This document shows, piece by piece, positions 970-16,653 of a stretch of DNA of 18,974 nt. The position numbers and the translations under genes are program-made. Origin of the DNA: a virus (Duplodnaviria > Heunggongvirae > Uroviricota > Caudoviricetes); the IMG/VR virus record IMGVR_UViG_2711768057_000002. One strand, 5' to 3'. Below the pieces are notes generated by a model. That model ran no database searches, was not told the DNA's origin, and was given only the letters and a program-made list of their open reading frames with translations. The stretch's first letter is position 1, and each line of letters begins with the position of its first letter.

Positions 970-1011
970 GCGGGGAAGAAAAATGCCGCTCTGTTTGAGT
1001 GGGCGGCATTT
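970..1011 (-). terminator. Putative rho-independent terminator (minus strand) upstream of the dinD promoter
   Basis: Inverted repeat AAATGCCGC(981-989)/GCGGCATTT(1003-1011) with 13-nt loop; on the minus strand the stem is followed by TTTTCTTCCCC. Confidence 0.4.
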
Positions 1012-1514
1012 GTGAAGGCTGAAAAGTAAGAATTAGTGTTACGAGTTACTCAATATTGAATCTGTTTGTAGAGTGTTGGCTTCAATGCCGCATTGTAGCT
1101 GGTTTCTTTCTAATGTGGTTTTTGATTATGTACACCCTTATGTACACAGTTTTTTCTGGTGCTATCCGCGCAATTGAAGGTGTGGGCATAATTTTGCCTC
1201 TATTGTGATAATCACAATTCTTCTTGTGTTGTGCTCATCATCCAGTTCATCGAGTTTCTACCAAGAGCGTTTTACGCGCTGGCCGAAGCTATTTTGGTTG
1301 CTTTGGCCTGAAGCCATTACCTACATCCCTCATGATTGAGGTGTGTAACCATGTTCAGGCTCGTTGTCCTGTGCGCGCGTATTGCTCGTGAAATTGCTGT
1401 ACACAATTAAGCTCTGCGATATTAGGTTTTATAAGGTTCTCGCATCCTTGTGAGGCGGCAGAATCAGTAACTACCTGATATTCCCGCCAACGAAAAAATG
1501 CGTTGGCTGGCAGA

Positions 1515-1614
1515 GTGCAAATTTGCACGATGACCTAACCCATTGATTCTTTCGAAAACCCCCATTGGGGGAAAAGCCTAACCCATTGGTTTTCCCACAA
1601 TCCTCAATTTGAGG
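1515..1614. repeat. Structured noncoding segment: palindrome GTGCAAATTTGCAC (1515-1528), direct repeat CCTAACCCATTG x2 (1534-1545, 1577-1588), hairpin CCCCC-ATT-GGGGG (1559-1571), palindrome CCTCAA-T-TTGAGG (1602-1614)
   Basis: Read directly from sequence; no ORF of 60 aa or more in 1010-1687 on either strand. Confidence 0.5.
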
Positions 1615-1687
1615 AATGTACCTAAAACCATTTTTATAGCTCCGATCCCTTCAAAGTGAGGGGTAATTTGCCAAAACAGAGAGAGCA

Positions 1688-1975
1688 TTACTGTCTCTGG
1701 CAATCTTTATAGCGATAACGCCTGAAGTACCCTCTCGCTTCCTCATCCATACCAAGAGCCGAATGAGTCCGCTTAACTGCCTGTCTTAAATCTCCGAATC
1801 TGTCTGTAGTTGCTGGTGGGCGTGCCGCCTTACGGATACATTCAGATCGTCTGTTTGCTGCATGTTCACGTTCTTTATCGCCATCTGCCAGCATCATGAC
1901 TTCTGCCCATCGTGCGGCAGCTCTCCGGTATAGCCCTTTTGACTCCAGCTCTTCAGCTTTCCTGTCCCTTATCAT
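1688..1975 (-). CDS. Small basic regulator, PerC-family-like (95 aa)
   Basis: N-terminus MIRDRKAEELESKGLYRRAAARWAEVM resembles the PerC-family pattern (AE-LE-KGL-RRAA-RW) from memory; SD GAGAGG 6 nt upstream of ATG; TATATAAT -10-like element about 20 nt further upstream. Confidence 0.6.
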   Translation of the reverse strand: MIRDRKAEELESKGLYRRAAARWAEVMMLADGDKEREHAANRRSECIRKAARPPATTDRFGDLRQAVKRTHSALGMDEEARGYFRRYRYKDCQRQ

Positions 1976-2011
1976 TTCTGCCTCTCAGATTATATAGATA
2001 AGCAAAAAGGT

Positions 2012-2132
2012 GTTGGTTCAGTTGGTTCAGTTGGTTCAATTTGTAAAGAGCGTTGTTTTTATTGTGTTTTTTCTAAAATATTGAACCAACATCAACTCAT
2101 TTTGAACCAACACAGCCCAGCTCTGAACCAAC
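2012..2132. promoter_or_regulatory. Operator/iteron array: GTTGGTTCA x3 in tandem (2012-2038) and its reverse complement TGAACCAAC x3 (2092-2100, 2103-2111, 2124-2132)
   Basis: Six exact copies of a 9-mer forming a large dyad in the divergent intergenic region between the PerC-like gene (minus) and the RHH/HTH gene (plus). Confidence 0.7.
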
Positions 2133-2185
2133 AACACAGCGATAGATTTGTGATTGGTCCGTTATTTTCTGGCTGATATTTGAGC

Positions 2186-2217
2186 GTATAACAGTGTTAT
2201 ACAGTGGTATACTGTAT
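2186..2217. promoter_or_regulatory. Tandem palindromes ATAACA-G-TGTTAT (2188-2200) and ATACAGT-GGTAT-ACTGTAT (2199-2217) just upstream of the 2235 start
   Basis: Perfect inverted repeats read from sequence, 18-47 nt upstream of the plus-strand ORF start; position is typical of an autoregulatory operator. Confidence 0.45.
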
Positions 2218-2234
2218 GGATATTACTCACTGAT

Positions 2235-2675
2235 ATGGTCTTTGCAATGAGCAAATCTAATCTGATCGCGTTCCGCATCCCATCTGAATTGCAGGATGAG
2301 TTTAATCGGTCTGTTCTCGCTTCTGGAGGGGATAAAACCTCCTGGCTTGTTGATGCGATTCGCATGAAGCTGAGACAGACGGAAAAGTCTATTGATTTAC
2401 GAATGCTTGGGCTGGTGGAGCGCATGGAAAAAGCCGCAGCATCGCTTATTGCCGGAAAGCCGAACATCCCACCAAAGCCATATAACGAAACGGCAGTTAT
2501 AAAGATCATTGCCGATACCATCCGACAGGGATTTGATAATGGGCGTGTGATAGCTGAACGGCTCAATGAAGCAGGCTACCAAACAAAAGCTGGTAAAGCG
2601 TGGGATAAAGACATTTACAGCGCGTGGAAGCGTCAGGGTAACAATATTAAAAGAATCAATACGCTGCTTCAGTAA
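2235..2675 (+). CDS. Small DNA-binding regulator: RHH-like N-terminus plus recombinase-type HTH-like C-terminus (146 aa; start may be ATG at 2247)
   Basis: N-terminal LIAFRIPSELQDEFNRSV is a strand-helix pattern typical of ribbon-helix-helix proteins; C-terminal IAERLNEAGYQTKAGKAWDKDIYSAWKR resembles the DNA-binding 'recombinase' motif of serine-recombinase-type proteins; the overlapping antisense ORF 2162-2566 looks non-protein-like. Confidence 0.6.
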   Translation: MVFAMSKSNLIAFRIPSELQDEFNRSVLASGGDKTSWLVDAIRMKLRQTEKSIDLRMLGLVERMEKAAASLIAGKPNIPPKPYNETAVIKIIADTIRQGFDNGRVIAERLNEAGYQTKAGKAWDKDIYSAWKRQGNNIKRINTLLQ

Positions 2676-2704
2676 TTGATCAGTGTATAAATGATATTTA
2701 TCGC

Positions 2705-3682
2705 TCAATCGCTCCCTTTCCGCCCTTCAGCTACAGGGTCGTTGTCGGCGATAACAAAACCTAAGTCCTGAGAGAATCTCTCTCGTGGGAATCCTTTGGC
2801 AGGTAAACCCATTGAATCATATCCACATCCGGGAACATTTGGTTTAGAGTCAATAAGGTCTGCAATTTGCCGAAGCCATGTTGATCCCGGACCAAGTTGT
2901 TTAACTAAGTACCAGATAATACAGATCGCGCTAAAAATCCTCTCGCAACTCTCTGGATGGAGATTAAGTCCGTCAAAGTATTCATTATCCGGTACTGGAA
3001 CTCGGGGATGCTTTCTATTCCATATTCTGGAATGGTGAGCGCAACGATTCCTTATGAGATTAAGGCACTTCAACCATTTTGCAAATGTCTGCTTATTATC
3101 AATGCCAAAACGACGTATAATTTTCCCCTGCATATGACCATTAAGCATCGCATAATATTTAGACATCTGACCAAAATCCCAGGTCTCCACCGCCACCCAA
3201 AATGGAATCTCCTTGCCTTGGCTTCGATGCCATTCAATACAGTCATCTCTGCTTTCGTCTAATTTTACTTTTTGCTTATACACCCAATGCTCGAAGGCAG
3301 ATGAGAATTTTGGATTAATGTATTTTGATGACATGTAGGCAAGTGGATCATTGCGACCAACCTCATGCGCGATGACTGAACGAACATGAATCTCTATTCT
3401 TTCGATAGCATCAATCATCAAAAGACGCAGTTTTTTGTCAAAAAGATATAGATCGTACGTCTTCTCGAAACTGGTACCAGCAAGAAATCGGTCTGTTCTG
3501 TACGAAAGACCTTTATCTGTTGTCGCAATAATTCTTGATGGGTACCAAAAACCTGACAATCGATAATATCCAACCTGCGACAGCTTACGTATCGCACGAT
3601 TTCGATCATTGATAATCATGCCACGTTCAAGTAGCAATCCTAGCAATTCGTGATAGTCCTTATGAGGCTTTGCGGCAATCAT
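2705..3682 (-). CDS. Abi_2-family abortive infection protein (AbiD/AbiF-like), about 325 aa from ATG at 3682 (ORF track extends to a GTG at 3727)
   Basis: Hallmark Abi_2 motifs: N-terminal HELLGLLLERGMIINDRNRAIRKLSQVGYYRLSGFWYP, central LYLFDKKLRLLMIDAIERIEIHVRSVIAH, C-terminal LIRNRCAHHSRIWNRK; AT-rich relative to flanks. Confidence 0.8.
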   Translation of the reverse strand: MIAAKPHKDYHELLGLLLERGMIINDRNRAIRKLSQVGYYRLSGFWYPSRIIATTDKGLSYRTDRFLAGTSFEKTYDLYLFDKKLRLLMIDAIERIEIHVRSVIAHEVGRNDPLAYMSSKYINPKFSSAFEHWVYKQKVKLDESRDDCIEWHRSQGKEIPFWVAVETWDFGQMSKYYAMLNGHMQGKIIRRFGIDNKQTFAKWLKCLNLIRNRCAHHSRIWNRKHPRVPVPDNEYFDGLNLHPESCERIFSAICIIWYLVKQLGPGSTWLRQIADLIDSKPNVPGCGYDSMGLPAKGFPRERFSQDLGFVIADNDPVAEGRKGSD

Positions 3683-3852
3683 AGTGGCGAAACAAAAGAT
3701 AATAAAAGGCCCGACCGTGAAACTCACATGCCTGAAATCGGCGGCGGAGAAACAGAGGATCGGGCTCGGTTGCCCGTAACTCTATCCGAAGTTATCCACA
3801 TGTCAATGCACAGTTACTTAGGAAACTAACATAGATACTATCATCACTCACG

Positions 3853-3875
3853 AAAAACCACTATATGTGGTTTTT
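3853..3875. terminator. Bidirectional rho-independent terminator-like hairpin AAAAACCAC-TATAT-GTGGTTTTT
   Basis: 8-bp stem flanked by an A-tract and a T-tract, so it reads as stem plus U-run on either strand; sits between the 4156 ORF end and the Abi gene start. Confidence 0.5.
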
Positions 3876-4155
3876 ATTCATATCGTTATCCACTACAGGC
3901 TGTGTCAATAATTTTTACCTATTAATTGGGTAATTTCTACATTTTCCTATGCTGGCTAGTTTCTCTACTGAAAAGTTGGCACTCCTTAATCGCTTTTCGG
4001 TTAATACTATCGGTCTTCATATTGCCAGCAGCATACGCCATCCGATAATTTCGATGCTACGCGCGCGTACTTGTCGCAAAATATCAGGCAAAGGCCAGAT
4101 TCAGAACGTCGTGATAACCACCAGCACAACATGAGATGTCATGTAACACGATTTA

Positions 4156-4473
4156 TCACACCAGATACATGTGATTGGTGTACCCGCATAAAACATTGTC
4201 ATAGCGCGTCCTGTGCGCATATACGCCGATAATCAACACATCGCCACCACTCTGACTTATGTAGAGAACAGTTTTATGGTACTCCCCTCCATCGTGCGCG
4301 TACTTGTCTCGAAATTGGTGTTTTGCTGTGGCAGTGATATCAGAAAAATCTTCCTGTTTCACATAAAGCGGATATGCGCGTACTGTAACGGCCCCATCAA
4401 CTGGGAGCGGATTTGAAATCCCGACCCAAGCTATGTACCAAATGCCATGTCTTGGATATATGATGATTGCCAT
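4156..4473 (-). CDS. Hypothetical protein (start uncertain; ORF open to 4602)
   Basis: C-terminal about 80 aa have protein-like composition, but no SD precedes either candidate ATG and the 5' part overlaps the better-supported plus-strand membrane ORF. Confidence 0.25.
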   Translation of the reverse strand: MAIIIYPRHGIWYIAWVGISNPLPVDGAVTVRAYPLYVKQEDFSDITATAKHQFRDKYAHDGGEYHKTVLYISQSGGDVLIIGVYAHRTRYDNVLCGYTNHMYLV

Positions 4474-4501
4474 TCTAAACAAAGCTAAAGGGAGGGTTGG
4501 T

Positions 4502-4858
4502 GTGAGGGGGCAGGCAGTTATAATTATTTTGTTGGGTTTAATTGTCGCAAAGTTATACCCGACTTTATCGATGGTGTTTTTTGCCATTATTGGCGCAGCC
4601 ATCTTTACTTATATCATTAAACATACCGCCTTGTGGTTCTATAAAATTGATATAGTTCAGAAGTTTGTACGTCCTGTGTCGATGTTATTACTAGCATTAA
4701 TACCAATTGGTGTTGCTTATGTAATTGATGTTTTTTACCCTTCGGACACTGAAAGGTGGTTGATAGTTTTGTATTGTTATATTGGTGTAGCTCTCTTTTG
4801 TGGATTTCATTGGTGTTTCGAAAAGATCAATGACTCTATTTCAAAGAATAAAGATTGA
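4502..4858 (+). CDS. Small integral membrane protein, about 4 predicted TM helices (118 aa from GTG at 4502)
   Basis: Strong SD AAGGGAGGG (4489-4497) 5-6 nt before GTG; four hydrophobic stretches (AVIIILLGLIVAKL, MVFFAIIGAAIFTYII, VSMLLLALIPIGVAYVI, WLIVLYCYIGVALFCGF); long open frame in AT-rich DNA; convergent with the 705-aa gene; GGCCA-TCCG-TGGCC hairpin right after the stop. Confidence 0.5.
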   Translation: MRGQAVIIILLGLIVAKLYPTLSMVFFAIIGAAIFTYIIKHTALWFYKIDIVQKFVRPVSMLLLALIPIGVAYVIDVFYPSDTERWLIVLYCYIGVALFCGFHWCFEKINDSISKNKD

Positions 4859-4877
4859 GGCCATCCGTGGCCATTCA

Positions 4878-6995
4878 CTAGTCATTATCTGGATCATTAG
4901 ATAGCCAAGTAATGATGCCCAGTCTGGCGATGGTCCGTTTTTCCTGTTCAGGAAGAGAGTTAAAAAAACTCTTCCATTGAGGGGAGCGCCTGATACGTGA
5001 ATCAACAATGTGCCCAGGCGCTTTTCCGTGTAGATTTTTTACTGCGCTCTGGAAGGCTGGCGAGGCAATTAATTTATCCGCAGCATCAGCCGCCCCTGCT
5101 CCACCAGCTAATCGAGCTTTACTCGCCAATCTTGCTCCAATATCAGCCCCAGCAATGGCTCCAAGCGATCCAAAATGAGCGCCTACCATCGTGCCTATTT
5201 TTTGAATGTGTTTTGCTGCTAGTTCGTATGGAGCTGTTACCCGATTAAATCTGTTTACAAACTCATTCAGCTTACCAGTAGATATTTCATGCGCTTTAGC
5301 ATTTTTTATTGCTCTGGCAACTTTGTATACATCATATAGTCCGCTCATTGTTTCTTTTGGCAAATGTTCAGCCAAAGTCTTTAGCTGTCCACTGTGTTGC
5401 AAGTTTTGCCACCAATCTGCAAAGCCAGATGGATTAAAGTCGGCCCCACGCTTCCCAGAGGAAAGCATATCTCTTAATGCTGTTCCTACTAGCTCCCTTC
5501 GCAATGTTCTTGATGGAGTATTTTGCATAATCTCACGAAACCCTCTCGCATCACCTTTTGCCATAGATTGAAGAGAATTCGTTACTTTATACGCTATATC
5601 CCCATTAAGTGTTTTCCCGCGAAGATTTACCATTTGCCTTTCTAAGTTTTTTCTCATAGCTACAAGGCGTTGTGCGACTTCGAAATCTCGCAAGTATCCA
5701 GTATTGGATAAGACAGATTTTTGGTCTTCAGCTAAAGCTCCATATAGTCTTGATAGCGCTTCTTTATCAGCATCTTTGTATGGCCCCTGCTTTTTATTTA
5801 GGGCATCACCAACTAAACGCCTTTGCCTGTTTAAATTTGCATACGTTAGGATGCTATCTGGGCCGGGGTTTATTGCTGTAAAAACTCGCTTTTCTATTGG
5901 GTCAAGATTATCCCACCCTCCTAAATCATCAGCGATTTTTTCCAGCATAGTGCTTGTGTTATTTGCTTCGACTTTTGTTCTTGGTGATAGAGCGGAATCA
6001 ACACGTTTATATAACTGATCACTACGGTTTTTTAGTGCTTCCATTCTACTATTTATCTGATAAATATATTTTTCGCTCATAGCTAACGCATCTGGCGCAC
6101 CAGCAACATCATCGATTATCTTGCCAGCACTAGAGGCTAATTCGCTTATTGCTTTATCTTCTTGAGCTTTTAACGCTGATCCTGTCCGTGACTTTAGGGC
6201 TTGCTCTACAGCTTGGTATTGCTCATTTCCTGATAAATGAGAAGGAAGAACTGAATCAACATGAAGCCTATTTGCAGCCTCAACAATTTCTTTCTGAGGT
6301 TTTAGATCTAGCCCTTCAAGCGAAGAGGCAAGATTTGGGTTGCCTTGTGCAGATAACTTACGAATTTTCTCTTCGGCAGGAGTAATCCCCTCAATATCTG
6401 GAATCGAAGAAACATTCTTCTTGGTTAATTTCCCAGCTATTTTATTAATTGCAGGGCCAGCAAGTTCGGCTACAGGGCCAGCCACAGCGCCAATAGCAGC
6501 GCCGGAAGCAACATCGCTATTTGTTCCATTGGCTACAATAGCCCCTTCTCCAGCACCAAGCCCTGCGGCGGCAGCCAGTCTTGCCGCCCCTTTGGGAACC
6601 TGAGAAATAATCCCACCACCACTAACAAATGGCGCTGCTTGTCCAACGAACTCACCAACATCTTGTGCGGTTGATGGTTTTGCCGCTAACTTCTGCTGTA
6701 GAGACTGAATTGCGGCTTGCTCTTCTGGTGTCATATCCTGAAACAGGCCAACACCTTTACCAACATCCATCAATCCACTGAGAACGCCATACATAAAACG
6801 GTCGAAACCGTTAGCATTATTAACAACATTTTCCTGTCTGGAATTTTCCTCTGGTGAAACCAAAGGTGATTGCTGCTGTTCTGGTTGGGCATCAAGCACA
6901 AAACCATCAGGAAGCTGTGAACTATCAGGAAACTGTGAGTTATCAGGTTGTTCATCGAGCACAAAACCTTCCGGTAAGATTACATTTGCTGCCAT
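4878..6995 (-). CDS. Hypothetical 705-aa protein: acidic Pro-rich N-terminus with tandem repeat, Gly/Ala-rich hydrophobic segments
   Basis: Long ORF; its ATG overlaps the upstream gene's stop by 16 nt (translational coupling); no catalytic motif recognised. Confidence 0.8.
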   Translation of the reverse strand: MAANVILPEGFVLDEQPDNSQFPDSSQLPDGFVLDAQPEQQQSPLVSPEENSRQENVVNNANGFDRFMYGVLSGLMDVGKGVGLFQDMTPEEQAAIQSLQQKLAAKPSTAQDVGEFVGQAAPFVSGGGIISQVPKGAARLAAAAGLGAGEGAIVANGTNSDVASGAAIGAVAGPVAELAGPAINKIAGKLTKKNVSSIPDIEGITPAEEKIRKLSAQGNPNLASSLEGLDLKPQKEIVEAANRLHVDSVLPSHLSGNEQYQAVEQALKSRTGSALKAQEDKAISELASSAGKIIDDVAGAPDALAMSEKYIYQINSRMEALKNRSDQLYKRVDSALSPRTKVEANNTSTMLEKIADDLGGWDNLDPIEKRVFTAINPGPDSILTYANLNRQRRLVGDALNKKQGPYKDADKEALSRLYGALAEDQKSVLSNTGYLRDFEVAQRLVAMRKNLERQMVNLRGKTLNGDIAYKVTNSLQSMAKGDARGFREIMQNTPSRTLRRELVGTALRDMLSSGKRGADFNPSGFADWWQNLQHSGQLKTLAEHLPKETMSGLYDVYKVARAIKNAKAHEISTGKLNEFVNRFNRVTAPYELAAKHIQKIGTMVGAHFGSLGAIAGADIGARLASKARLAGGAGAADAADKLIASPAFQSAVKNLHGKAPGHIVDSRIRRSPQWKSFFNSLPEQEKRTIARLGIITWLSNDPDND

Positions 6996-8323
6996 TTTCC
7001 GTTCCTGTAAATGATTTTCTGACCAGTTTTAGGGTTGGTTGCCGTTGCGCCTTCTGATATTCCTCCGGTTGCCGCTTTTGCCTGTCCAGTGCCAGCCTGT
7101 GATGTAGGCTGCCCGGAAACATCGTCAAATAGCTTCGCTTTCCTTCTTTCAAGGCTTTTTCTTAGCCCCTGAGGAATAGTTTCTCCATATGTATCGAGAT
7201 ACTCGTCAACCTGCTGGTTAAACTGCTGCCCCATAGCATTGGCGTTGATTTTTGCGGCGTTAACAATGTTATCCTTTGCCTCCTGCGACAGGCCGTTTCC
7301 AGCATTAAGCTGGTCTATGTATCCTTTGATTTGTCCCCATATGCCATCAGACCGCATTACCTGAACCTGTTCGCCTTCACGAACGACTGACTGCGGGTCA
7401 AGAGATTTCATGTAGTTGAAGATAATCCCAAGTTGGGCAGCGCCAGTATTTACCTTGCTAAGGGCTTGCAGAGAGTTTGCCGCCGCTCTGACAGAGTTAT
7501 AATTTTTGCCAAAATTGGTAATGTCAGAATTTAATCCCTTAATTAAGTCTGCTGACGGCTTACCTTTTTGCCCCAGCTCCATTAGCTTCAATCCCATCTC
7601 ATCTGAGTGAATTTGTGCTCGCTGAGCCCTGTCTAGTTGAGCGTTCTGGATATTTGCCCATCCTCTCGCGTTCTCCATGTCAGCCTGACGCATACTTTCA
7701 TCCAGTCGCCCTTGCTCAAGTCGACGACCTTCCATTTGATCTTTGATATCGAAATACTTCTCATGACCGAGAGAAAACAGCGCCAGATTACCTGCGAAAT
7801 GCTGGAAGCCCTGCGGGTCATTAACCTGCATTTCAGCAATAGTTTCTGGAGGGATACCTAAACGACGCATCTCCTGCTCATTATCCATCATGAACCTGCC
7901 AAATGCGCCCTGACCAAGCGATGAGGCTACCTGTGCTTTGAGCGCCAGATTGCCATAATCATCCCTTTGAGCATCATCGACATAACTCATCCCTTTACGG
8001 ACTTCCTCAAACTCTTCTGGGAATGCTGTAATAAGATTACGCATCTGCTCCCTGTCACCGGACGCATAAGCATCTGCATAACCTTTCTGGAATGCCGCTT
8101 TACGCTCCTGCTGTTGCTGCTGCTTATAAATATCAGCAACTCCAGCCAGACCTCGAAGACCTGTCAGACCAACGTTATTTGCACCTGAGCGAGCCAGTTC
8201 ATTGTTTTCGCGGATCAGACCAAGCGTTGCGTTAATGTCGCTTGCCTTTGGCGCATTCTCATTTTGCGCACCAATGCCAGCCAGAAAACCACCAGAATTA
8301 ATACCCTGTTTCCACGTAGCCAT
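6980..8323 (-). CDS. Hypothetical 447-aa protein, Gln/Asn/Ala-rich, probably largely helical (start ATG 8323; track shows GTG 8335)
   Basis: ATG at 8323 lies 4 nt after the stop of the 57-aa ORF (TAAATCAATG); MATWKQGINSGG N-terminus; no Walker or nuclease motifs seen. Confidence 0.8.
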   Translation of the reverse strand: MATWKQGINSGGFLAGIGAQNENAPKASDINATLGLIRENNELARSGANNVGLTGLRGLAGVADIYKQQQQQERKAAFQKGYADAYASGDREQMRNLITAFPEEFEEVRKGMSYVDDAQRDDYGNLALKAQVASSLGQGAFGRFMMDNEQEMRRLGIPPETIAEMQVNDPQGFQHFAGNLALFSLGHEKYFDIKDQMEGRRLEQGRLDESMRQADMENARGWANIQNAQLDRAQRAQIHSDEMGLKLMELGQKGKPSADLIKGLNSDITNFGKNYNSVRAAANSLQALSKVNTGAAQLGIIFNYMKSLDPQSVVREGEQVQVMRSDGIWGQIKGYIDQLNAGNGLSQEAKDNIVNAAKINANAMGQQFNQQVDEYLDTYGETIPQGLRKSLERRKAKLFDDVSGQPTSQAGTGQAKAATGGISEGATATNPKTGQKIIYRNGKWQQM

Positions 8324-8327
8324 TGAT

Positions 8328-8501
8328 TTACCCACGTCCAGTTAAAGTGTAAGCCAGCGCCTTATCCATTAATCCCCGAGCAATTTCGTGGATCGTTGGC
8401 GCAACTCCTACCTCTGATTTTTTACGCTGCTCCTCCTGAATTTTCTTTATCGCTTCCATTTGCTTCTCACTTATCAATACCGGCTTTACTGAAATAGCCA
8501 T
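8328..8501 (-). CDS. Small 57-aa protein MAISVKPVLISEKQMEAIKKIQEEQRKKSEVGVAPTIHEIARGLMDKALAYTLTGRG (not in ORF track; below its size cut-off)
   Basis: Translated by hand from the minus strand; strong SD AAGGGGG 5 nt upstream of ATG 8501; stop TAA 8328-8330; strand-then-helices pattern compatible with a small RHH-like DNA-binding protein (inference). Confidence 0.5.
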   Translation of the reverse strand: MAISVKPVLISEKQMEAIKKIQEEQRKKSEVGVAPTIHEIARGLMDKALAYTLTGRG

Positions 8502-8516
8502 AACGCCCCCTTAGAA

Positions 8517-8563
8517 CTGTATAAAACAACAGTCATTATAGTTTCATAAAACGCAATATTCAT
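8517..8563 (-). promoter_or_regulatory. Candidate sigma70 promoter (-35 ATGAAT 8563-8558, 17-nt spacer, -10 TATAAT 8540-8535) overlapped at the transcription start by a LexA-box-like site CTGTATAAAACAACAG (8517-8532)
   Basis: Perfect TATAAT hexamer on the minus strand; CTGT-N8-ACAG with one perfect CTGTAT half-site, 3 nt downstream of the -10 and 16 nt upstream of the ATG at 8501. Confidence 0.4.
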
Positions 8564-8594
8564 CATTGTGATTGCAAAATATGAAACAAATAGC

Positions 8595-8629
8595 ACAAAA
8601 AAATGCCACCGCTCAGTAGCTGGTGGCAT
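8595..8629 (-). terminator. Rho-independent terminator (minus strand): ATGCCACC-11 nt loop-GGTGGCAT followed by TTTTTTTG
   Basis: Perfect 8-bp GC-rich stem (8603-8610 / 8622-8629) followed on the minus strand by a run of 7 T; separates the upstream genes from the SOS-box promoter. Confidence 0.6.
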
Positions 8630-8994
8630 CGTTCTGTATGTCAGGTTTTGACAGGTTTTTTATGGACTCTAAAAACTATATTTACGATGTCGCATTACTC
8701 TTCACGGCAGGCGCTTTCCAGTTCTGCCCTTGCTTCTGGCTCCATTGGTAATTTGATTCGCGATCAGCTATGCGGATGGTTTGCTGAACAGGCATAACAA
8801 CATCTCAGAGGCTATTTTTTGAACTACGAAAATTTCGTAGGTCTCTCCTTCAAAAACGTCACGCCCTTGTACACTGGATTTTACAAAAGTCTCGTAAAAC
8901 TCTTTGCTGTTCTGGGCTATGTGCCAAACCGCAGCGAATACCTCCGTCTGCCAGATGAGCAAAACATACCTTATAAAGAAAATCGCTGTTTTTG

Positions 8995-9098
8995 CTGTAC
9001 CACCTGTACCACCATGTCACAAACCCTTGTGTGACGCGGCCTGCAGGTGGTACAGGTGGGTAAAAATGACCTCTCCCCACCTGTACAGACCTGTACCA
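8995..9098. repeat. Iteron cluster A: TGTACCACC x2 direct (8996-9013), inverted copy GGTGGTACAGGTGG (9047-9060), ACCTGTAC(C) x2 (9078-9097); internal palindrome GTCACA-N8-TGTGAC (9016-9035)
   Basis: Read directly from sequence; same core motif (ACCTGTACCACC / GGTGGTACAGGT) as cluster B about 1.1 kb away. Confidence 0.6.
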
Positions 9099-9103
9099 TT
9101 TAT

Positions 9104-9841
9104 TTAATTTTTACCCATAGCAGCACATAATCCCTTTTTTGAAATATTGAAAAATGCGTTCATTCTTCCCGCTGGCTTAACCTTGTAGCCGCTTGCCACC
9201 ATCGCCGCAATAAATGCTCCGTTGGGGATATAGTGCGGGTGATCACTGTGCTGGTGGTTTATCTGGTTATATCGCTCCACTTCATGCTTCAACGTGTCAG
9301 ATGTGGGGTTATCCTGCGGGAAGCTCTCAATCTGGGCATTACTCATCCCGTTGTCTCTGATCCATCTCAGGCAGCTTTTCGCCGATACGATAAATGACGG
9401 GTTATCAAGCGGGTTTTCCCAGTCCGCATTCCGGTTGTGGAGCGCCAGTCCGTCAAGGTTAAATTGTGGGTATTCAGCGGTAATTACTGTCACTGCGTGG
9501 CGGATTTCAGTCTCGTCACAACATGGCTCATCTCCCACACCAGCAGGGTAATAATCTGAACCACCGGGACTGATACAGCGTTTACCACTGAAAGGCCATT
9601 GCTTCGCCATTTCGGGTGTTGAGTGATTACCGTCGCTCCGTTCGCGCTGTGCCTCTGTCCACTGGCTGGCATATTCAGTAAATGAAACCCTTTGCCCCTG
9701 ACGCATCCAGTGCGCAATCATAATTAAAGTGCGTTCCAGACTTTGGATGTCGCCAGCATTCCCGCACTGTGTAGCGAAACTTTTTAATTCTTCGCGCTCC
9801 GTTCTGGTCATTCCCTGCGGTATGCAATAGTTATTGCTCAT
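9104..9841 (-). CDS. Hypothetical 245-aa protein
   Basis: SD GAGAGG 7 nt upstream of ATG 9841; start overlaps the upstream 76-aa ORF stop (translational coupling). Confidence 0.65.
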   Translation of the reverse strand: MSNNYCIPQGMTRTEREELKSFATQCGNAGDIQSLERTLIMIAHWMRQGQRVSFTEYASQWTEAQRERSDGNHSTPEMAKQWPFSGKRCISPGGSDYYPAGVGDEPCCDETEIRHAVTVITAEYPQFNLDGLALHNRNADWENPLDNPSFIVSAKSCLRWIRDNGMSNAQIESFPQDNPTSDTLKHEVERYNQINHQHSDHPHYIPNGAFIAAMVASGYKVKPAGRMNAFFNISKKGLCAAMGKN

Positions 9842-10058
9842 GTTTTACCTCTCTGATTTCTGCTGCCATATCTGTTGGCTCTATACAGCCGTCCCGACTT
9901 GCCACGCAGGGAATAATGATTTCAACGGTATCGCCGTCAATACACATTTCAACATTCGCCCATGCCGCAATGGGTAGCCAGTCTGAACGCCCCTCAAACC
10001 GTAGCTGCCAGCCAGAGGAAGAAGCTAACTGGCGCACTTTGTAAAATGGTGTGCTCAT
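9831..10058 (-). CDS. Hypothetical small protein (75-76 aa; ATG at 10058 or 10061)
   Basis: SD GAGAGGA 9-12 nt upstream of the tandem ATGs; stop overlaps the downstream gene's start. Confidence 0.5.
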   Translation of the reverse strand: MSTPFYKVRQLASSSGWQLRFEGRSDWLPIAAWANVEMCIDGDTVEIIIPCVASRDGCIEPTDMAAEIREVKHEQ

Positions 10059-10104
10059 CATTGGTTGTTTCCTCTCAGCCAGCCAGAAGAAATGCGTTTG
10101 TTAA

Positions 10105-10210
10105 TGGTATAGGTGGTACAGGTCTGGTATAGGTAAGATATTGACCTGTACCACTATAACGCACTGTTTTTAATACTGAATTAGCAAAGTGGTATAGGTG
10201 GTACAGGTAA
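10105..10210. repeat. Iteron cluster B (putative replication-origin-like element): GGTGGTACAGGT at 10112-10123 and 10197-10208, inverted ACCTGTACCAC at 10144-10154, flanking TGGTATAGGT repeats; A-rich stretch 10209-10255 follows
   Basis: Read from sequence; lies immediately downstream of the primase-helicase stop (10238), the position where P4 carries its ori iterons (recalled knowledge). Confidence 0.55.
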
Positions 10211-10237
10211 AAACGATCTTCTTGTAAAAAGACTATA

Positions 10238-12589
10238 TTAAAAAACATCATAACCCCCCATACCGATCAGACGGGCAAACGCAGCCTGTAGAACTCCGAC
10301 CTCTGGTAGTTCGTAGAACACGCCATTCCCTCGGTCTGGTCTTCCATGCTTCACCAGCCCCATTTGTGCAAGTGATTTACCCAGTAGTGATCTGGCTGCT
10401 GGCTCTTTAAGCTTTTCCCCACGCTCAAGCGACCACGCTACAAATCGACTAACCATATCCTTTGCAAACAAACGGACTTCGCCATTAAACGGAGGTTCAT
10501 TGATTAGCTCGCCATAAAGAAACAATTCAACGCCAGACAGCCCCAGCAAGATTTCTTCACGTAAGGCATCGGTCTGTGGCGCTCGTTGAGGGTCAAAACC
10601 TGAGAGATCCACCCCTTTAAGATGCCAAAGCAACTTTGCGGCACCGCCATCATTAAGCCAACTGTACAGCCGATCAAAATACTCCCGACTCTGTGCTTTT
10701 TCAGGAGATGGCTCAAGCACGAGATAGCGACGCTCTCTTATCCCTGCCTGTAATACCTGTGTGCTGTTACTGGCAAATATCAACCGGGCAAAATTCGGCA
10801 TTGGTTCAGCATCAATTCCCTTGCGCTCAAGGTTAAACGTCGGTTCGCTAATAATCGCTTTAAGTCTGTCAGCTTCAGACGGCTTGTGGATCGTCACTTC
10901 GTCAGCAAATACCAGTAGCTTGTTAGCAAGTATTGAATTGAAGCGCCCTGAAATATGTCCCGCCCCGTTAATGTGGGCGGCGTACTGCCCCAGTATTTGC
11001 AGCAGCGGTTTAACCGTTGTGCCTTTCCCTGTGCCCGGGACAGATTTCATCACGATTGCCACGGACGGTTTTTCATCAGGCTTTTGGATAATGTGCGCCA
11101 TCCACTGGATAAGATATTGGTATGCCTCCTCATTACCGGCACAGACAACCTGCAACAGGTGATTAAGGTATACCGTGCAATCTCCTTCAATTGGTTCCAG
11201 TGCCAGCCCCTCATACAGATTAAAAACATCGTCAGGGCATTTGTCTGGTACTGGATAAAATCCTACGCCTCCTGGCTTGTAGTTCTTCCCACTCCATGAC
11301 AGCCACGCCGATCCCGCCAGCTTTCTGGCGACTCTCGGTTTATGATGAAAATAATGCTGAAATTGTGATAAATCCTCGAAAACGTGCGATACACCGCCGG
11401 TTTGAGAAGGCTTTAGCGACACCACCTTGTGTTTCCCGCCGATGGTGACATGCGTAAACGTCCGGTTGATTTCTTCGAGGACAGCAATTTCATCATCGCT
11501 TAACACCTCGCCAGAACTGATCTCATTCAGCGCCCCGACTGACTGTTTGTGATTTTTCACCTGCGCCCCTTTCCCCCGTGGCTGGTACATCGAATCTTTA
11601 AATGCTGCTGTGGCTGCCGCCAGCCCGTGTTGTTGGTGATAGTCGTTCCAGTCGGCTTTATAGTCAGTCGGTGGCAGAGACACCCAGCCAGCTACGGAAA
11701 TAGCGGCCCTCTCTGCGGCATCTTTCCCCGTGTTGATCCCTCCACTTTCTGAGTCTCCTTGCTGGTGATCGTTATCTGCGGCAATGATTATTTGTGCCTG
11801 CGGATATGTTCTGCGCATGACTTCCGCTACTGGCAACAGGTTGCCAGCGTCGATTGCTGCCACTGTCATTGCGTCAGGGCGAATTAAATGGCACGACAGG
11901 GCGGTAGCCACCCCCTCAGCAATTATGATGCTGTGAGGTCGTTTCTGTGCGTTTATGGCGTGATATGCCCCCCGCTTTGCCGAACCTGTCAGGAGTCTTT
12001 TTTCACCATGTGGGGTAATAGTCTGTGCTGCTGTGACTGCGCCGGATTTATCCACCAGCGCCAGCAACAGAGATCCATCGGGCAACACGGGGAATGTAAA
12101 ATCACCTACCCCTTTCGCAACCAGATAATCAGATTTGCCGTTTACAGCCTTTCTGCGCATGTCATCAAACTGACGGGAAAACGTATCCCGTCTTTGTTGT
12201 TCGTCCTTCTCTGCCCTTTTCAGGCGCTCCTGTTCGCGTCGCTGGCGCTCGGTTTCCAGTTGTTCCCGTTTCTGGCTGGTGGCTTCTGGTGTTTCCGTTG
12301 TCCGGTAATCAATACCCAGAACATCAGCGGCAAGAAGCGCCGCCTCTGTTGTGTCGCAGTTATTTACGCGTTTAATTAAATCCAGCCCATCACCAGCGCC
12401 GCACTGATTACAGATGAAGCTACCGCGCCCGTTGTCATCGAACCGGAATCGATCTTTGCCCCCACATGCAGGGCAGGGAGCATGACGGCGCGGAGAGTCA
12501 GGGACATTTATGTTCAGGCAGCCCAGCACATGAGGCCAGTTGTTTTCAGACGCACTGATAACCTGACGGATAAGATCAATGTTTCGCAT
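10238..12589 (-). CDS. P4-alpha-like primase-helicase (zinc-finger/Toprim primase domain plus P4-family NTPase domain), 783 aa
   Basis: N-terminal Cys motif CPACGGKDRFRF...FICNQCG; Toprim-like IIIAEGVATALS and AADNDH; Walker A MKSVPGTGKGTT and Walker B LLVFADEV; size close to P4 alpha (777 aa); SD GGGGG upstream of ATG. Confidence 0.92.
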   Translation of the reverse strand: MRNIDLIRQVISASENNWPHVLGCLNINVPDSPRRHAPCPACGGKDRFRFDDNGRGSFICNQCGAGDGLDLIKRVNNCDTTEAALLAADVLGIDYRTTETPEATSQKREQLETERQRREQERLKRAEKDEQQRRDTFSRQFDDMRRKAVNGKSDYLVAKGVGDFTFPVLPDGSLLLALVDKSGAVTAAQTITPHGEKRLLTGSAKRGAYHAINAQKRPHSIIIAEGVATALSCHLIRPDAMTVAAIDAGNLLPVAEVMRRTYPQAQIIIAADNDHQQGDSESGGINTGKDAAERAAISVAGWVSLPPTDYKADWNDYHQQHGLAAATAAFKDSMYQPRGKGAQVKNHKQSVGALNEISSGEVLSDDEIAVLEEINRTFTHVTIGGKHKVVSLKPSQTGGVSHVFEDLSQFQHYFHHKPRVARKLAGSAWLSWSGKNYKPGGVGFYPVPDKCPDDVFNLYEGLALEPIEGDCTVYLNHLLQVVCAGNEEAYQYLIQWMAHIIQKPDEKPSVAIVMKSVPGTGKGTTVKPLLQILGQYAAHINGAGHISGRFNSILANKLLVFADEVTIHKPSEADRLKAIISEPTFNLERKGIDAEPMPNFARLIFASNSTQVLQAGIRERRYLVLEPSPEKAQSREYFDRLYSWLNDGGAAKLLWHLKGVDLSGFDPQRAPQTDALREEILLGLSGVELFLYGELINEPPFNGEVRLFAKDMVSRFVAWSLERGEKLKEPAARSLLGKSLAQMGLVKHGRPDRGNGVFYELPEVGVLQAAFARLIGMGGYDVF

Positions 12590-12601
12590 TCTGGCCCCCG
12601 T

Positions 12602-13204
12602 TTAGTGCGTCACTGGTGCTTCTGGGATGCCGTTTTCGTTTAGTTCGGCAATAAAGCTGTTGTGAAGATCGGCAAGCACTTCTCGCCCAAACGAAGTGAG
12701 TGTTCCCTGTTCGACATCGAACATGTTGCTGTAAAAAATGATGGCATTCTTTGTTCCGACATCAACACCATATTTCTCGATCATTGCGCCCTCAATGTTG
12801 TTTGCCATAGCGAGGCGCTCTGCTACTGGATACAGCGGCATGGCGACGATGCCATTGGAATAAACAGAAACCACGGAATGATTGCCACTGTCATCAATAA
12901 TGCTGACGGTGCCGTTTTCCTTTCTCATTTCATTGATGAATGCTGTTGCTATCAGCCAGCGCCACATAATCACGTGATGCTGTGATGTGTAATCGAAATA
13001 TCCCTGGTTGCCGCCACTGGCAATAGCGAGATGTATAAACATGCCTTCATCTGGTTTATCGTCATAATCCCCGGCATCCAGACGATTTACGGCATCAATA
13101 TATGAGACGGTCTCAACGCGTTCTGTCATGCCATCGTTGCTGCGGTGCATGATGTTTACGCCGTCAGGCGTTGCTTCTGCATGGAAAGTTAAGAAATTAT
13201 TCAT
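12602..13204 (-). CDS. Hypothetical 200-aa protein immediately upstream of the primase (start ATG 13204; track extends to 13309)
   Basis: ATG 13204 preceded by SD GAGG 7 nt upstream and located 2 nt after the stop of the upstream ORF (ATGAATAA overlap). Confidence 0.65.
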   Translation of the reverse strand: MNNFLTFHAEATPDGVNIMHRSNDGMTERVETVSYIDAVNRLDAGDYDDKPDEGMFIHLAIASGGNQGYFDYTSQHHVIMWRWLIATAFINEMRKENGTVSIIDDSGNHSVVSVYSNGIVAMPLYPVAERLAMANNIEGAMIEKYGVDVGTKNAIIFYSNMFDVEQGTLTSFGREVLADLHNSFIAELNENGIPEAPVTH

Positions 13205-13418
13205 GTTTCGCCTCGCCTGAATGATTCTGTAACTCATATTTGCCCAACAATTCGTCTGCTTCCTGAATAGCTTCTGGTACGCCATTGAGCAGTGACATAA
13301 CCGCGCCAATCATTAACTTGTCTCTGTTGCTGGGGCTGGCCCCTTCAAGCCAGAACCCTAAAACAGTCTGAACCTGTTCGATGCGACATTGCGCTTCAAT
13401 GAGCTGGATGTTGGTCAT
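13197..13418 (-). CDS. Hypothetical 73-aa protein
   Basis: SD GGAGAG 7 nt upstream; ATGA start/stop overlap with the upstream ORF. Confidence 0.55.
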   Translation of the reverse strand: MTNIQLIEAQCRIEQVQTVLGFWLEGASPSNRDKLMIGAVMSLLNGVPEAIQEADELLGKYELQNHSGEAKHE

Positions 13419-13678
13419 TTCGCACTCTCCACATCGATTAAACCGATATCTATCAGGGAGGTAACTTTTTGTAGCCAGCTATTGATTACTGTCGCCTGTT
13501 CCCCTCCCACCGAGGGAACAATCTCATTCATCACATGAACCAGACCTGTGCGCGCTCTGGTAAGCCGTTCAGTCGCGCAATCTGCGGGAGTGAATGTGTC
13601 TGGATATGGCTCTTCGCGCCCCAGCAATGATTCAATTTCCAGCTCACACGGATGACGATAAATTAAGTTGATATTCAT
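13415..13678 (-). CDS. Hypothetical 87-aa protein
   Basis: SD GGGGGTG 5 nt upstream; ATGA overlap with the upstream ORF. Confidence 0.55.
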   Translation of the reverse strand: MNINLIYRHPCELEIESLLGREEPYPDTFTPADCATERLTRARTGLVHVMNEIVPSVGGEQATVINSWLQKVTSLIDIGLIDVESAK

Positions 13679-13869
13679 TTTTCACCCCCAAGAATTACCA
13701 GCTCGGCACGGGCATCGTTAACCAAAGATGAGCACGCTTTAATCGCATCCACGACATCAGCAGCGTCCATTTCTTCAGCCGAAAGACTGACAGCAATCAG
13801 GACAGCCGCTGCTTGCTCGATTAATTGAAGTGCGGACGTAAGGCGAGGGGTATTAATTGAGTTATTCAT
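13675..13869 (-). CDS. Hypothetical 64-aa protein
   Basis: SD GGGGG 6-7 nt upstream; start overlaps the stop of the 342-aa ORF (ATGAATAA). Confidence 0.55.
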   Translation of the reverse strand: MNNSINTPRLTSALQLIEQAAAVLIAVSLSAEEMDAADVVDAIKACSSLVNDARAELVILGGEK

Positions 13870-14890
13870 TGGTTGCCCCCGTTTTTACTGGCATTTCGCC
13901 ACCTTCCAGCAGGAAATGAACGTCACGAACGGCGAGATCCAATATCGCGAGTAACGCCTTCAGTCTTTCGTCTCGTGAGGGAGAGTTGCTCACCAGAATG
14001 TCGTTAATCACTTCTGTCAGTGTGATGATCTGGCTTGTGCGTTCGAGGGGATCCATATGCACATCGTAGGTTTTAATCATGTGCCACCTCCATGCGGATA
14101 CGACCAGCAAAAAAGCAGACGTGATCGCGCACCAGAGAACGGCGAGCATCGCGTTCAGACTCGGCAGCAATATGATGAATTTTGGCGGTAATTGTCGGGC
14201 AATCGCGGCGAACTGCGGCGATAATCCAGATAAATTGCGGTTTTTGGGTAGGGGTAGTAGCCAGCATGTGGCAGCCTCCTTGATTGATGGTTTATAGCCA
14301 CCGCCCAAGAGACCAATCTTGCTGGCGGTGGACTGTACGGAGTTGGCCTTACTGGCAATCAAGGAAACCAGCCTACCCGAAGGTAGCCCCATACAGCCCA
14401 CCATTGATAAGGTGTGCGTGTGCGCCGATACAAAAAAAGACGCTGGCGCGTCATGTATCGCCTCGATTGTCAGCGGGAGGCCAATCCCGGCACCCGTTTT
14501 ATGAGGTGCCTTATAACCATAAACCGTGTTGCCGCATAACGGCAAGCTCTTTTTTATGGACTCCGAAAACTCACTATTGGAAGCACCAGATGCACAATAC
14601 ATCGCGCTCATTTCGTTAACGTCACGCGCATGGACGAAGGTTTTTGTGGAGTCACTACACGAGCGGAAGACATCATCTACGACCAGAAATTTTCTGGCGC
14701 AGCCGCTGACCTTCTCAATGCTAATATCATCGCCCGAGATTTCTGGTATGGTTAAGGCATCCGTTCCGACCACCAGCAAATGATAAACTTTGCTTGTATC
14801 TGCTGTATTAATGCCTGACTTTGCCGTCATATTGCTGGATTTTGGCGACATACCAGCCAGTGAAAATGTCTTCTTCTGGACGGGTATCAT
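13862..14890 (-). CDS. Hypothetical ORF (342 aa as drawn; possibly composite, see findings)
   Basis: Start at 14890 well supported (SD GGAGG 7 nt upstream, ATGA overlap with upstream gene); the central part has odd composition and an in-frame ATG at 14080 has its own strong SD GGAGGTG. Confidence 0.45.
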
Positions 14891-15066
14891 TGGTTAACCT
14901 CCGCGAACTCCTTCATGAAACGCGCCAGCGGTTGTACGCATGGCGATTGATACCCGTCGCGATAAAACGTCACTCGGTTGTGAGACACGCTTTCGACAGT
15001 AACGAGTGCTCCGTGGGCATCTTTGTAGCGTTTTTGTGGTTGTGGTATTCCTGTTGGCTTAGACAT
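14887..15066 (-). CDS. Hypothetical 59-aa protein (track ORF 14887-15153 trimmed to ATG 15066)
   Basis: SD GGAGG 7 nt upstream of ATG 15066, which overlaps the stop of the antirepressor-like gene (ATGTCTAA). Confidence 0.5.
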   Translation of the reverse strand: MSKPTGIPQPQKRYKDAHGALVTVESVSHNRVTFYRDGYQSPCVQPLARFMKEFAEVNQ

Positions 15067-15892
15067 TGAGCGCCTCCAGACGCTTGGCGAGCCAGCGTTG
15101 CGACAGGCGGGTGAGTTCTCCTTTGCGCTGCTCATATTCCATGCCCATATCAATTAACGTGATATTGGTGCTTTCGAGATATGAGAGGTGCTCAAGCTGT
15201 TCTGCGTTCATATGGTCGCGAGGTTCGCCAGAATAGCCATTTATCCGCGCCCACTGCTTAGCAGTTAGCCCACCAAGAACGATACGAGAAATCATATTGC
15301 TCTCGTTTGTGTAGTGGTGTTGCTGCGTCGTTTTCCCCATCTCGGCACGGGCCATATTCAGCGCATCGCACATTGGCTTAAAGTTGTTTGCGGCACTGAT
15401 ACGGGCTTTTAGCTGGCGACGATAGCGGGCGGCGATTTCAGGCACGCTACGCTGTAATTCTTCCTCGCACTGGATGAAATAACGACGGATAGCGCGACCC
15501 TGATCATTGCGTTCGATCATTGCCAGTTCTTTCGCCATTCCGACACTTAACAGATAGTCTTTGCCGGGTCTGCCAGAGTGCTTAATCTTGCTGTAAGCCG
15601 CGCCATTCGGGCTTTTCCCCAAATTTGGGGAAATTGTTTTATGGACTGAGTAATCGTGCCCAATGGTGAAGTCATATTCAGAGATGCGATCAGTGATCCA
15701 TGTAGAGAAGTCTTTTCCCACGCCCAACGCTTTGTGTAACGCTTTTGCGCTAACAATATTGGTTTCACGCCCACCTATATGACCAGAAATAACCGGGACA
15801 ATTGCGGCAAATTCATTACCGTTAATTGTGCTCAGAGAGGCGTTCAGATGAGGGGCGGCCTCAGAAATTAATCTGCTTTTTTCGATGTTCAT
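15059..15892 (-). CDS. Phage antirepressor-like protein (AntA-type N-terminal domain), 277 aa
   Basis: VSAKALHKALGVGKDFSTWITDRISEYDFTIGHDY matches the AntA/AntB antirepressor N-terminal motif from memory; SD GGAG 8 nt upstream. Confidence 0.65.
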   Translation of the reverse strand: MNIEKSRLISEAAPHLNASLSTINGNEFAAIVPVISGHIGGRETNIVSAKALHKALGVGKDFSTWITDRISEYDFTIGHDYSVHKTISPNLGKSPNGAAYSKIKHSGRPGKDYLLSVGMAKELAMIERNDQGRAIRRYFIQCEEELQRSVPEIAARYRRQLKARISAANNFKPMCDALNMARAEMGKTTQQHHYTNESNMISRIVLGGLTAKQWARINGYSGEPRDHMNAEQLEHLSYLESTNITLIDMGMEYEQRKGELTRLSQRWLAKRLEALNV

Positions 15893-15904
15893 TTTCAGTC
15901 TCCG

Positions 15905-16539: not shown

Positions 16540-16540
16540 G

Positions 16541-16588
16541 CTTCCCGTAACCTCTTAGCGATAGTTGTTGCTTCGTTACGGGAGGAAG
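16541..16588. promoter_or_regulatory. Imperfect inverted repeat CTTCCCGTAAC (16541-16551) / GTTACGGGAGGAAG (16575-16588) in the alpA leader
   Basis: Arms flank a 23-nt loop; the left arm ends 2 nt upstream of the alpA ATG, so in mRNA the SD region could be sequestered; alternatively a DNA operator. Confidence 0.35.
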
Positions 16589-16606
16589 TATCTGTACATA
16601 TATGGA

Positions 16607-16638: not shown

Positions 16639-16653
16639 GAATAGTTAGCTACT

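Follow-up and report, generated by a model that had tools for sequence, protein, structure and literature searches.

The window, which is the whole 18,974-nt stretch of DNA that was analysed, contains at 4502–4858 a small plus-strand gene, hereafter called the target, whose orientation is opposite to that of both flanking genes. Downstream it faces two genes for ejection proteins, from which it is separated by a hairpin, and upstream it is preceded by a conserved flank that also contains most of a minus-strand ORF (Table 1). The GC content of the target is 35.0%, compared with 46.3% for the window, and in a near-identical annotated RefSeq record the island has just two plus-strand CDS, of which the target is one. 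An earlier, sequence-only reading of this DNA had described the gene as AT-rich, as opposed in orientation to its neighbours and as one of only two plus-strand genes in the element, and these descriptions are borne out.

Table 1. Features of the target locus, with positions numbered from the first letter of the window. Membrane segments and loops are predicted.
Feature	Position	Strand	Description
Conserved 5' flank	3995–4501	+	Untranslated leader, common to the target, P0014-type and sieA-like cassettes
Minus-strand ORF	4156–4602	-	148 aa; 105 aa from the conserved Met at 4473
Target CDS	4502–4858	+	118 aa, GTG start; small polytopic membrane protein (predicted)
TM1	4508–4567	+	Residues 3–22, hydrophobic
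TM2	4568–4618	+	Residues 23–39, hydrophobic
Basic cytoplasmic loop	4619–4675	+	K/R-rich, residues ~40–57
TM3	4676–4726	+	Residues 59–75, hydrophobic
Conserved acidic periplasmic loop	4727–4756	+	DVFYPSDTER, residues 76–85
TM4	4757–4807	+	Residues 86–102, hydrophobic
Basic C-tail	4808–4855	+	K/R-rich
Hairpin	4859–4872		GGCCATCCGTGGCC, in the 19 nt that separate the convergent stop codons
gp16 analog	4878–6995	-	705 aa, ejection (E) protein, converges on the target
gp20 homolog	6980–8335	-	451 aa, ejection protein

The open plus-strand frame spans 4433–4858, and GTG 4502 is supported as the start codon of the target by the strength of its Shine–Dalgarno (SD) sequence, the N-termini of homologs, an identity breakpoint and the reading frame of a sibling locus. 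The SD sequence, GGGAGGG at 4490–4496 (+), lies 5 nt before the GTG. The sequence-only reading had counted this SD among the strongest in the window; at −11.8 kcal/mol, its anti-SD duplex is the strongest of the 26 candidate starts. The corresponding energies of the alternative starts are −3.1 kcal/mol for ATG 4463, which is used by PGAP, and +0.1 kcal/mol for ATG 4433, which opens the longest ORF. The homologs P0008 (MQGQ) and P0015 (MKGQ) start at the residue equivalent to GTG 4502 and have in-frame stops 4–5 codons upstream of their start. In comparisons with the sibling loci, the identity is ~98% up to GTG 4502 and drops directly past it. A 2-nt indel within the SD region of the sibling L066 shifts all of the upstream ATGs out of frame, and in-frame stops are found before the shared GTG. 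The RefSeq entry for the target, WP_001363070.1, is a “hypothetical protein” of 131 aa that begins at ATG 4463. Based on the sequence comparisons above, this start is probably wrong, and the 13 N-terminal residues of the RefSeq version, MIAILNKAKGRVG, are probably untranslated leader that includes the SD. The start at 4502 proposed by the sequence-only reading is therefore preferred to that of RefSeq.

The comparison of the target with P0008, to which it is 48% identical at the amino acid level, gives a pN of 0.34 and a pS of 0.82, the best contrast among the six frames. In the first 21 codons, 13/21 differences between the target and the P0014-type allele (described below) fall at codon position 3. 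These patterns indicate that the target is under purifying selection. The target is a real gene that has been annotated only as hypothetical and probably from the wrong start.

The minus-strand ORF overlapping the start of the target has no SD (−1.0 / +0.5 kcal/mol), no PGAP annotation in the E. coli records inspected, and no match in Pfam, PHROG, PADLOC or NCBIfam. Its copies carry several lesions. The window has a 54-nt in-frame deletion (4298–4303) relative to the L006-type loci, L007 has two 1-nt deletions, and L009 has a 7-nt duplication. The homologs found for it are fragments of 74–207 aa from E. coli or Salmonella, many of which are frameshifted or truncated. The sole conserved Met of this ORF, at 4473, falls short of 4502, and the ORF read from this Met does not overlap the target. 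The sequence-only reading had held that the target would be refuted if the minus-strand ORF proved to be the translated frame. As the frame translated over 4502–4602, the ORF is rejected on account of the missing SD and annotation and of the frameshifts and indels in its copies, and the target frame stands. From its sequence, the minus-strand ORF is judged to be a decaying relic within the conserved leader region. Its C-terminal half (…GGDVLIIGVYAHRTRYDDV…) presumably has a vague likeness to RelE/ParE-type toxins, with no library match behind it.

The conserved 5' flank probably holds the promoter of the cassettes that follow it. Outside the 54-nt indel, the flank is ~98% identical to L006, L007 and L009–L011, and BLAST gives 85–87% with the indel included. 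The leader of sieA in Salmonella phage P22, ACAAAACTAAGGAGGTTGGTGTG, and the leader of the window, ACAAAGCTAAAGGGAGGGTTGGTGTG, are alike, including the RBS and the GTG, and this likeness covers the last ~25 nt of the flank. A promoter and terminator scan gave generic promoter-like sites at chance frequency only and no canonical terminator, an Rfam scan of 3600–5000 gave no match, and no tRNA was found in the window. The best sigma-70-like site of the region, TTGCCA-16-GATAAT (10/12 matches), is located at 4022–4049 and is overlapped by a 61-aa ORF at 3949–4134 (+) with no family match. The homology of L013 to the window starts at 4051, just past this site. In the database variant P0002, ~4022–4480 is deleted and the 61-aa ORF is fused to the leader of the slot gene, the gene that lies downstream of the flank.

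The target protein has four hydrophobic segments, and these fit a predicted topology of four TM helices that follows the positive-inside rule. The K/R-rich loop at residues 40–57 and the K/R-rich C-tail predict that both termini are on the inside (N-in/C-in). This prediction agrees with the four-TM membrane protein of the sequence-only reading, which had suggested a topology prediction as a check. The AlphaFold2 model of the target also consists of four helices, with low confidence (pLDDT 64), and a Foldseek search of this low-confidence model against BFVD returned nothing below E 0.98. The most conserved parts of the target family are TM1 and the stretch formed by TM3, the following loop and TM4, with the pattern IPxGxAYxID..(Y/F)P...ERW.

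Scans of the target and its homologs against Pfam, PHROGs, PADLOC and NCBIfam gave sub-threshold matches only, which were inconsistent between members, and the target has no PHROG or PADLOC model match at E <= 0.1. The sub-threshold matches (Bax1-I, CBO0543, DUF7937 and others) are rejected as noise from hydrophobic composition. The match to the 7-TM Bax inhibitor-1/YccA family (PF01027) scores 23.8 bits for the 141-aa form of the target and 18.8 bits for the 118-aa form, against a cut-off of 34.1; it covers the model only in part and is not reproduced by P0008. The CBO0543 family (NF041644) gives 23.7 bits for the target, against a cut-off of 35, and no match at E <= 1 for P0008 and P0014. 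In size and TM count, the target resembles the GtrA-like flippases (4-TM, ~120 aa, involved in O-antigen conversion and found in P22-like phages). This assignment was rejected, as the target has no GtrA-family match at E <= 1 and no glycosyltransferase neighbours.

Both minus-strand neighbours are, from their sequences, identified as ejection proteins of P22-like podophages (genus Lederbergvirus). The gp16 analog matches phrog_6704 (1.4e-174) and phrog_770, “DNA transfer protein”. It belongs to the clade of E212, Kapi1 and Sf101 and not to the P22 clade defined by PF26808, and it has no BLAST similarity to P22 gp16. Matches to it were found with tblastn in Lederbergvirus phages, the closest relatives being those of Sf101, E212 and Kapi1, and in these three phages the gp16 analog comes after gp7 and gp20. 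It is 62% identical to the gp16 of L012. The gp20 homolog matches PF16928 (Inj_translocase, 1.5e-73) and phrog_917 and is 58% identical to the gp20 of E212.

Some further observations concern this operon. The annotations of the gp16 analog clade in phage records vary between “transglycosylase”, “lytic tail fiber protein” and “DNA transfer protein”. An internal stop interrupts the gp20 gene that adjoins the gp16 analog in strain SEC470 (L014). The operon is headed by a 57-aa ORF at 8328–8501 (-), which has the second-strongest SD in the window (−11.1 kcal/mol) and 94% DNA identity to a copy in L066 that there precedes gp14.

The hairpin between the convergent stop codons has a fold energy of −9.1 kcal/mol and no T-run. 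A GCCATCCnTGGC element is found past the slot gene in L006, L007, L015, L016, L066, Kapi1 and Sf101, and the P22 version is GCCGTCCTTGGC. This conserved hairpin at the 3' end of gene 16 in P22-like phages is likely to act as a bidirectional terminator. In P22, gene 16 is convergent, with a 22-nt gap, on sieA, whose superinfection-exclusion product keeps out the DNA of rival phages, and in the window the 19-nt gap holds the same conserved hairpin. The position that characterises SieA genes, next to and convergent with gene 16 and between genes homologous to P22 genes 16 and 9, is the one occupied by the target. The island of the window itself has no tailspike gene.

The relation of the target to sieA is clearest in L066, a sibling island in E. 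coli a15 that is 95% identical to 1464–4506 of the window. The shared backbone includes PerC, a 146-aa ORF, an Abi protein, a small ORF, a primase, Ash and AntA/B, and the homology ends at the start codon of the slot gene. From the identical GTG, L066 encodes a protein of 204 aa in which the SieA signature RYPGEA is present and which matches a SieA type A profile in hhalign with a probability of 93% (E 2.5e-7). The homology between the window and L066 resumes at ~8353. Between the breakpoints, L066 contains the sieA-like gene, a gp16 of the PF26808 type, gp20, gp7 and gp14, and the window contains the target, a gp16 of the E212 type and gp20. The block with the slot gene, gp16 and gp20 (plus gp7 and gp14 in L066) has been swapped as a unit, 4507–8352 of the window corresponding to 3400–8715 of L066. 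The flanks of the swapped block are 94–95% identical, with one breakpoint at the start codon (4506) and the other a little upstream of gp20 (~8353). Since a true SieA homolog is encoded in L066 from the same GTG and behind shared upstream DNA, the target is, by sequence comparison, an alternative cassette to sieA that uses the same 5' region in one element family.

A third allele of the slot is the P0014-type gene, which has the same leader as the target and the same first ~20 codons. It encodes a membrane protein of 116–130 aa in P22-like prophages of E. coli (WP_011703616.1, ATCC 11775) and occupies the same slot behind the same upstream DNA. Like the target, the P0014-type protein is uncharacterised, has four predicted TMs and shares the TM1 encoded by these first codons, but it diverges fully past codon ~21, so that the overall identity is 26%. 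Unlike the target, it pairs with the P22-type gp16 of PF26808. It is also more common, being present in 229 of 5426 complete E. coli genomes as opposed to 87 for the target.

SieA, a protein of the inner membrane, has a conserved cytoplasmic C-terminal motif, FxRYPxEAxxFNK, and is carried by 22 of 66 sequenced P22-like phages, about a third (Leavitt et al. 2024, PMC10883804). Mutations that allow escape from P22 SieA map to gp16 and gp20, and these two proteins must be a matched pair, while gp7 can be exchanged (PMC10883804). The target resembles the SieA proteins (PF26849; types A, B and C) in several respects. Both genes occupy the same slot and are convergent on gene 16 at a distance of 17–22 nt, and the P22 sieA locus has the same intergenic hairpin and a similar leader, RBS and GTG. 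Each product is a small polytopic protein of the inner membrane (a prediction in the case of the target), and both genes are linked to gp16 and gp20, the genetic targets of SieA. The two differ in size and layout, as the target has 118 aa and four close-packed TMs and SieA has 162–205 aa, three to four TMs and a long soluble loop. They also differ in the gp16 partner, which belongs to a non-P22 clade for the target and to the PF26808 clade for SieA.

The target itself is ruled out as a SieA homolog. BLASTP of the target against P22 SieA gives E 2.1, and hhalign of the target family against the SieA type A profile gives a probability of 0.2%, compared with 93% for the L066 protein as the positive control. 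PF26849 is present in the precomputed annotations of SieA matches and absent (“-”) from all of the target-family matches. The target lacks the FxRYPxEAxxFNK motif; its C-terminus is FHWCFEKINDSISKNKD, and RYPxEA occurs nowhere in the protein. The layout of the helices argues against homology as well. Other small envelope proteins have been proposed to block DNA entry, namely HK97 gp15, T4 Imm, Lactococcus Sie2009 and Streptococcus Ltp (PMC10883804). Like the target, they are small, are encoded by prophages or phages and would act after adsorption, but they have no homology to the target in the PHROG and PADLOC scans (E <= 0.1), affect long-tailed phages or myophages and are found in other genomic contexts.

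The target family is small. A profile search of 1.84 billion cluster representatives returned the cluster of the target, P0008 (118 aa, 48% identity to the target), P0015 (147 aa, 35% identity) and fragments only. Searches of 50,697 phage genomes with the target and P0014 (tblastn) and with the 5' flank (blastn) gave no match, and prophages and islands are the only known sources of the family. P0008 and P0015 both occupy the sieA position of P22-like prophages. The P0008 gene follows four co-oriented genes of the Arc family (PF03869, the family of P22 Mnt), lies beside an antirepressor and is convergent on gp16, and the P0015 gene lies between a tailspike gene and gp16. The target, P0008 and P0015 are all paired with the non-P22 gp16 clade, and SieA (P22 and L066; types A and B-like) and P0014 are paired with the PF26808 gp16; this covariation of the target family with the gp16 clade has n = 3, and physical linkage confounds it. 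A profile scan of genome contigs with gp16 found only two Symbiopectobacterium loci.

Of 5426 complete E. coli genomes, 87 (~1.6%) contain the allele-specific part of the target, and in at least 68 of these 87 genomes the target lies within the island context. The content of the slot is much more varied than the three alleles described above. Across 43 IMG/VR loci whose gp16 belongs to the clade found in the window, the slot holds a ~99-aa signal-peptide protein in 14, peptides of 62–68 aa in 4, a soluble 140-aa protein in 2, the target in 2 and nothing within 120 nt in 20, and one locus is too short to score. The slot is thus a general hot-spot for morons, and position alone does not fix the function of its occupant. 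Further evidence for such a hot-spot comes from L016, a P22-like prophage in the E. coli type strain ATCC 11775, which carries a ClpP-like protease, a YafO-family toxin and a 188-aa hypothetical protein at 12203–14338, within the immI region that separates the Arc/Mnt-like genes from the P0014-type slot gene.

The island that carries the target extends over ~1000–18974 of the window and has siblings in L013, L014, L066 and L007/L008. It contains an integrase, an AlpA-like HTH protein, AntA/B, DUF4222, Ash, a DUF5906 primase, small ORFs, gp20, gp16, the target, variable cargo and PerC, and it occurs in at least two chromosomal contexts, one beside dinD and the other beside pao and a LysR fragment. 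The island of the window lacks capsid, portal, terminase and tail genes, and it also lacks gp7 and gp14. The only virion genes are ejection genes of the P22 type, gp20 and gp16 in the window and gp14, gp7, gp20 and gp16 in L066 and L007. An AbiD/Abi_2 gene at 2705–3727 (-) lies between PerC and the slot gene (PF07751, 2.3e-52; PADLOC AbiD, 5.7e-58). In L013 and L014, AbiD is absent and a 66-aa ORF is found in its place, so this region behaves as a variable spot for defence cargo. A 321-aa ORF at 16654–17619 (-), in a patch of 35–36% GC beside the integrase, has no PHROG match, is annotated as hypothetical and may be another cargo gene.

Based on its position, we propose that the target is an inner-membrane superinfection-exclusion protein that blocks the DNA-injection conduit formed by gp20 and gp16, and we assign this reading a probability of about 0.5. 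The confidence is held at this level because the slot is a general hot-spot and because the covariation with the gp16 clade is seen in three linked pairs. The target would be a positional and regulatory replacement of sieA in the resident element. It would be expressed constitutively from the leader, RBS and GTG that drive the true sieA in the sibling element, and its product would be placed in the cytoplasmic membrane of the cell that bears the island. Once a P22-like podophage has adsorbed and discharged its ejection proteins, the target would hinder the assembly or the function of the trans-envelope conduit of gp20 and gp16, and the incoming DNA would be kept out of the cytoplasm. Candidate contact surfaces are the conserved second periplasmic loop (ID-V/I-x-Y/F-P-x-x-T/P-ERW; residues 76–85) and TM1. 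The pairing with a single gp16 clade would fit a protein that is matched to the type of conduit.

Strong positional support for exclusion comes from the sieA slot and the swap with L066. The likeness of the leaders, the positions of the relatives, the polytopic, positive-inside topology, the pairing with one gp16 clade, the purifying selection and the escape from P22 SieA through gp16 and gp20 also support it. Against it stand the lack of SieA similarity and of the SieA motif, and the arrangement of four tightly packed TMs in place of the three TMs and large loop of SieA. The sequence-only reading had named superinfection exclusion, a holin-like function and immunity as options. Exclusion gains from the sieA slot and the L066 swap, and the holin-like option loses, as there is no lysis cassette and the slot is expressed from the prophage. 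The same reading had considered these functions independently of the adjacent operon, which is misleading, as the target is linked to and swapped with gp16 and gp20, the targets of SieA in P22 (PMC10883804).

An alternative that deserves some weight, although it is doubtful, is that the target is a membrane moron with another envelope function that merely shares its hot-spot with sieA. It could, for example, be an abortive-infection effector that depolarises the membrane, protect against a bacteriocin or a different class of phage, or contribute to host physiology. Many unrelated small proteins that are exported or sit in the membrane (Kapi1_059/060, for example) occupy the slot beside gene 16, the target has no SieA homology, and the island bears other variable defence cargo (AbiD, missing in L013 and L014). 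However, the replacement of a true sieA exactly at the start codon and the pairing with one gp16 clade point to a function that is tied to the ejection proteins, and the target matches no PADLOC model. A tie of a different kind, in which the target serves the ejection module of its own element, is improbable. It would then act as an immunity protein or chaperone that shields the membrane or wall of the producing cell from its own gp16 and gp20 while particles are assembled, or as a membrane receptor that favours the entry of particles with the matching gp16 and gp20. The exchange of the target in one block with gp16 and gp20 between conserved flanks (~4507–8352 relative to L066) and the pairing of its family with one gp16 clade would both suit such a role, as would the annotation of relatives of this gp16 clade as transglycosylase. 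But the target is transcribed opposite to the late operon, from a leader that is used by sieA, and sieA in P22 is expressed from the prophage and is non-essential. Most phages with this gp16 clade also lack the target protein, which shows that it is not needed for gp16 function.

A holin or an antiholin-like lysis protein would likewise be small, very hydrophobic and multi-TM with a charged C-tail, and Foldseek gave some very weak matches with holin names (E > 3). This identity is nevertheless very unlikely: neither the window nor the sibling loci contain an endolysin, a spanin or a lysis cassette, the lysis genes of P22-like phages lie elsewhere, the slot is expressed in the lysogen, no PHROG holin matches at E <= 0.1, and the fold matches are non-significant. 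It is more improbable still that the target ORF is non-functional and that the minus-strand ORF, or nothing, is expressed. Some gene callers do predict the minus-strand ORF at the locus, and the target allele is near-invariant in E. coli (87 genomes, all copies at least 99% identical), which makes a selection test within the species uninformative. Against this, the contrast between pN and pS in the comparison with P0008 is found in the plus frame only, the third-position bias begins at the GTG, the SD is strong, and two diverged homologs are full-length. The minus-strand ORF, for its part, lacks both an SD and a RefSeq annotation, and many of its copies are broken. After weighing these alternatives, an exclusion protein that is a new occupant of the sieA slot, unrelated to SieA, is most likely.

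The island itself may be more than a carrier of this gene. It is possible to provide E proteins in trans (bioRxiv 10.64898/2026.09.03.749273), and this, together with the need of gp16 and gp20 to be a matched pair, makes it plausible that the island, with its own gp20/gp16 pair, is a satellite of P22-like phages. A broader proposal, which is speculative and more probably wrong than right, is that the slot gene, gp16 and gp20 (sometimes with gp7 and gp14) form a swappable cassette for the injection conduit and for exclusion. It would be carried by undescribed satellites of P22-like podophages in E. coli, marked by an integrase, an AlpA-like HTH protein, Ash and a primase. These satellites would load matched ejection proteins into the capsids of a helper and bar rival P22-like phages, and the target would found an exclusion family, unrelated to SieA, that is tuned to the non-P22 gp16 clade. 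The literature searched contained no paper on WP_001363070 and none on satellites or PICIs with P22 ejection-protein genes.

Among injection blockers that act on short-tailed phages, only SieA has been characterised, and the target, if the proposed function is true, would be a second case that is unrelated in sequence. Such a case would help to show how a tiny membrane protein jams the gp20/gp16 conduit, and it would test whether blockers match the type of conduit. A mobile island in which the only virion genes are podophage ejection genes, with exchanged cassettes of the sieA type, is a testable candidate for a new kind of satellite, and it adds an unannotated candidate defence gene in ~1.6% of complete E. 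coli genomes.
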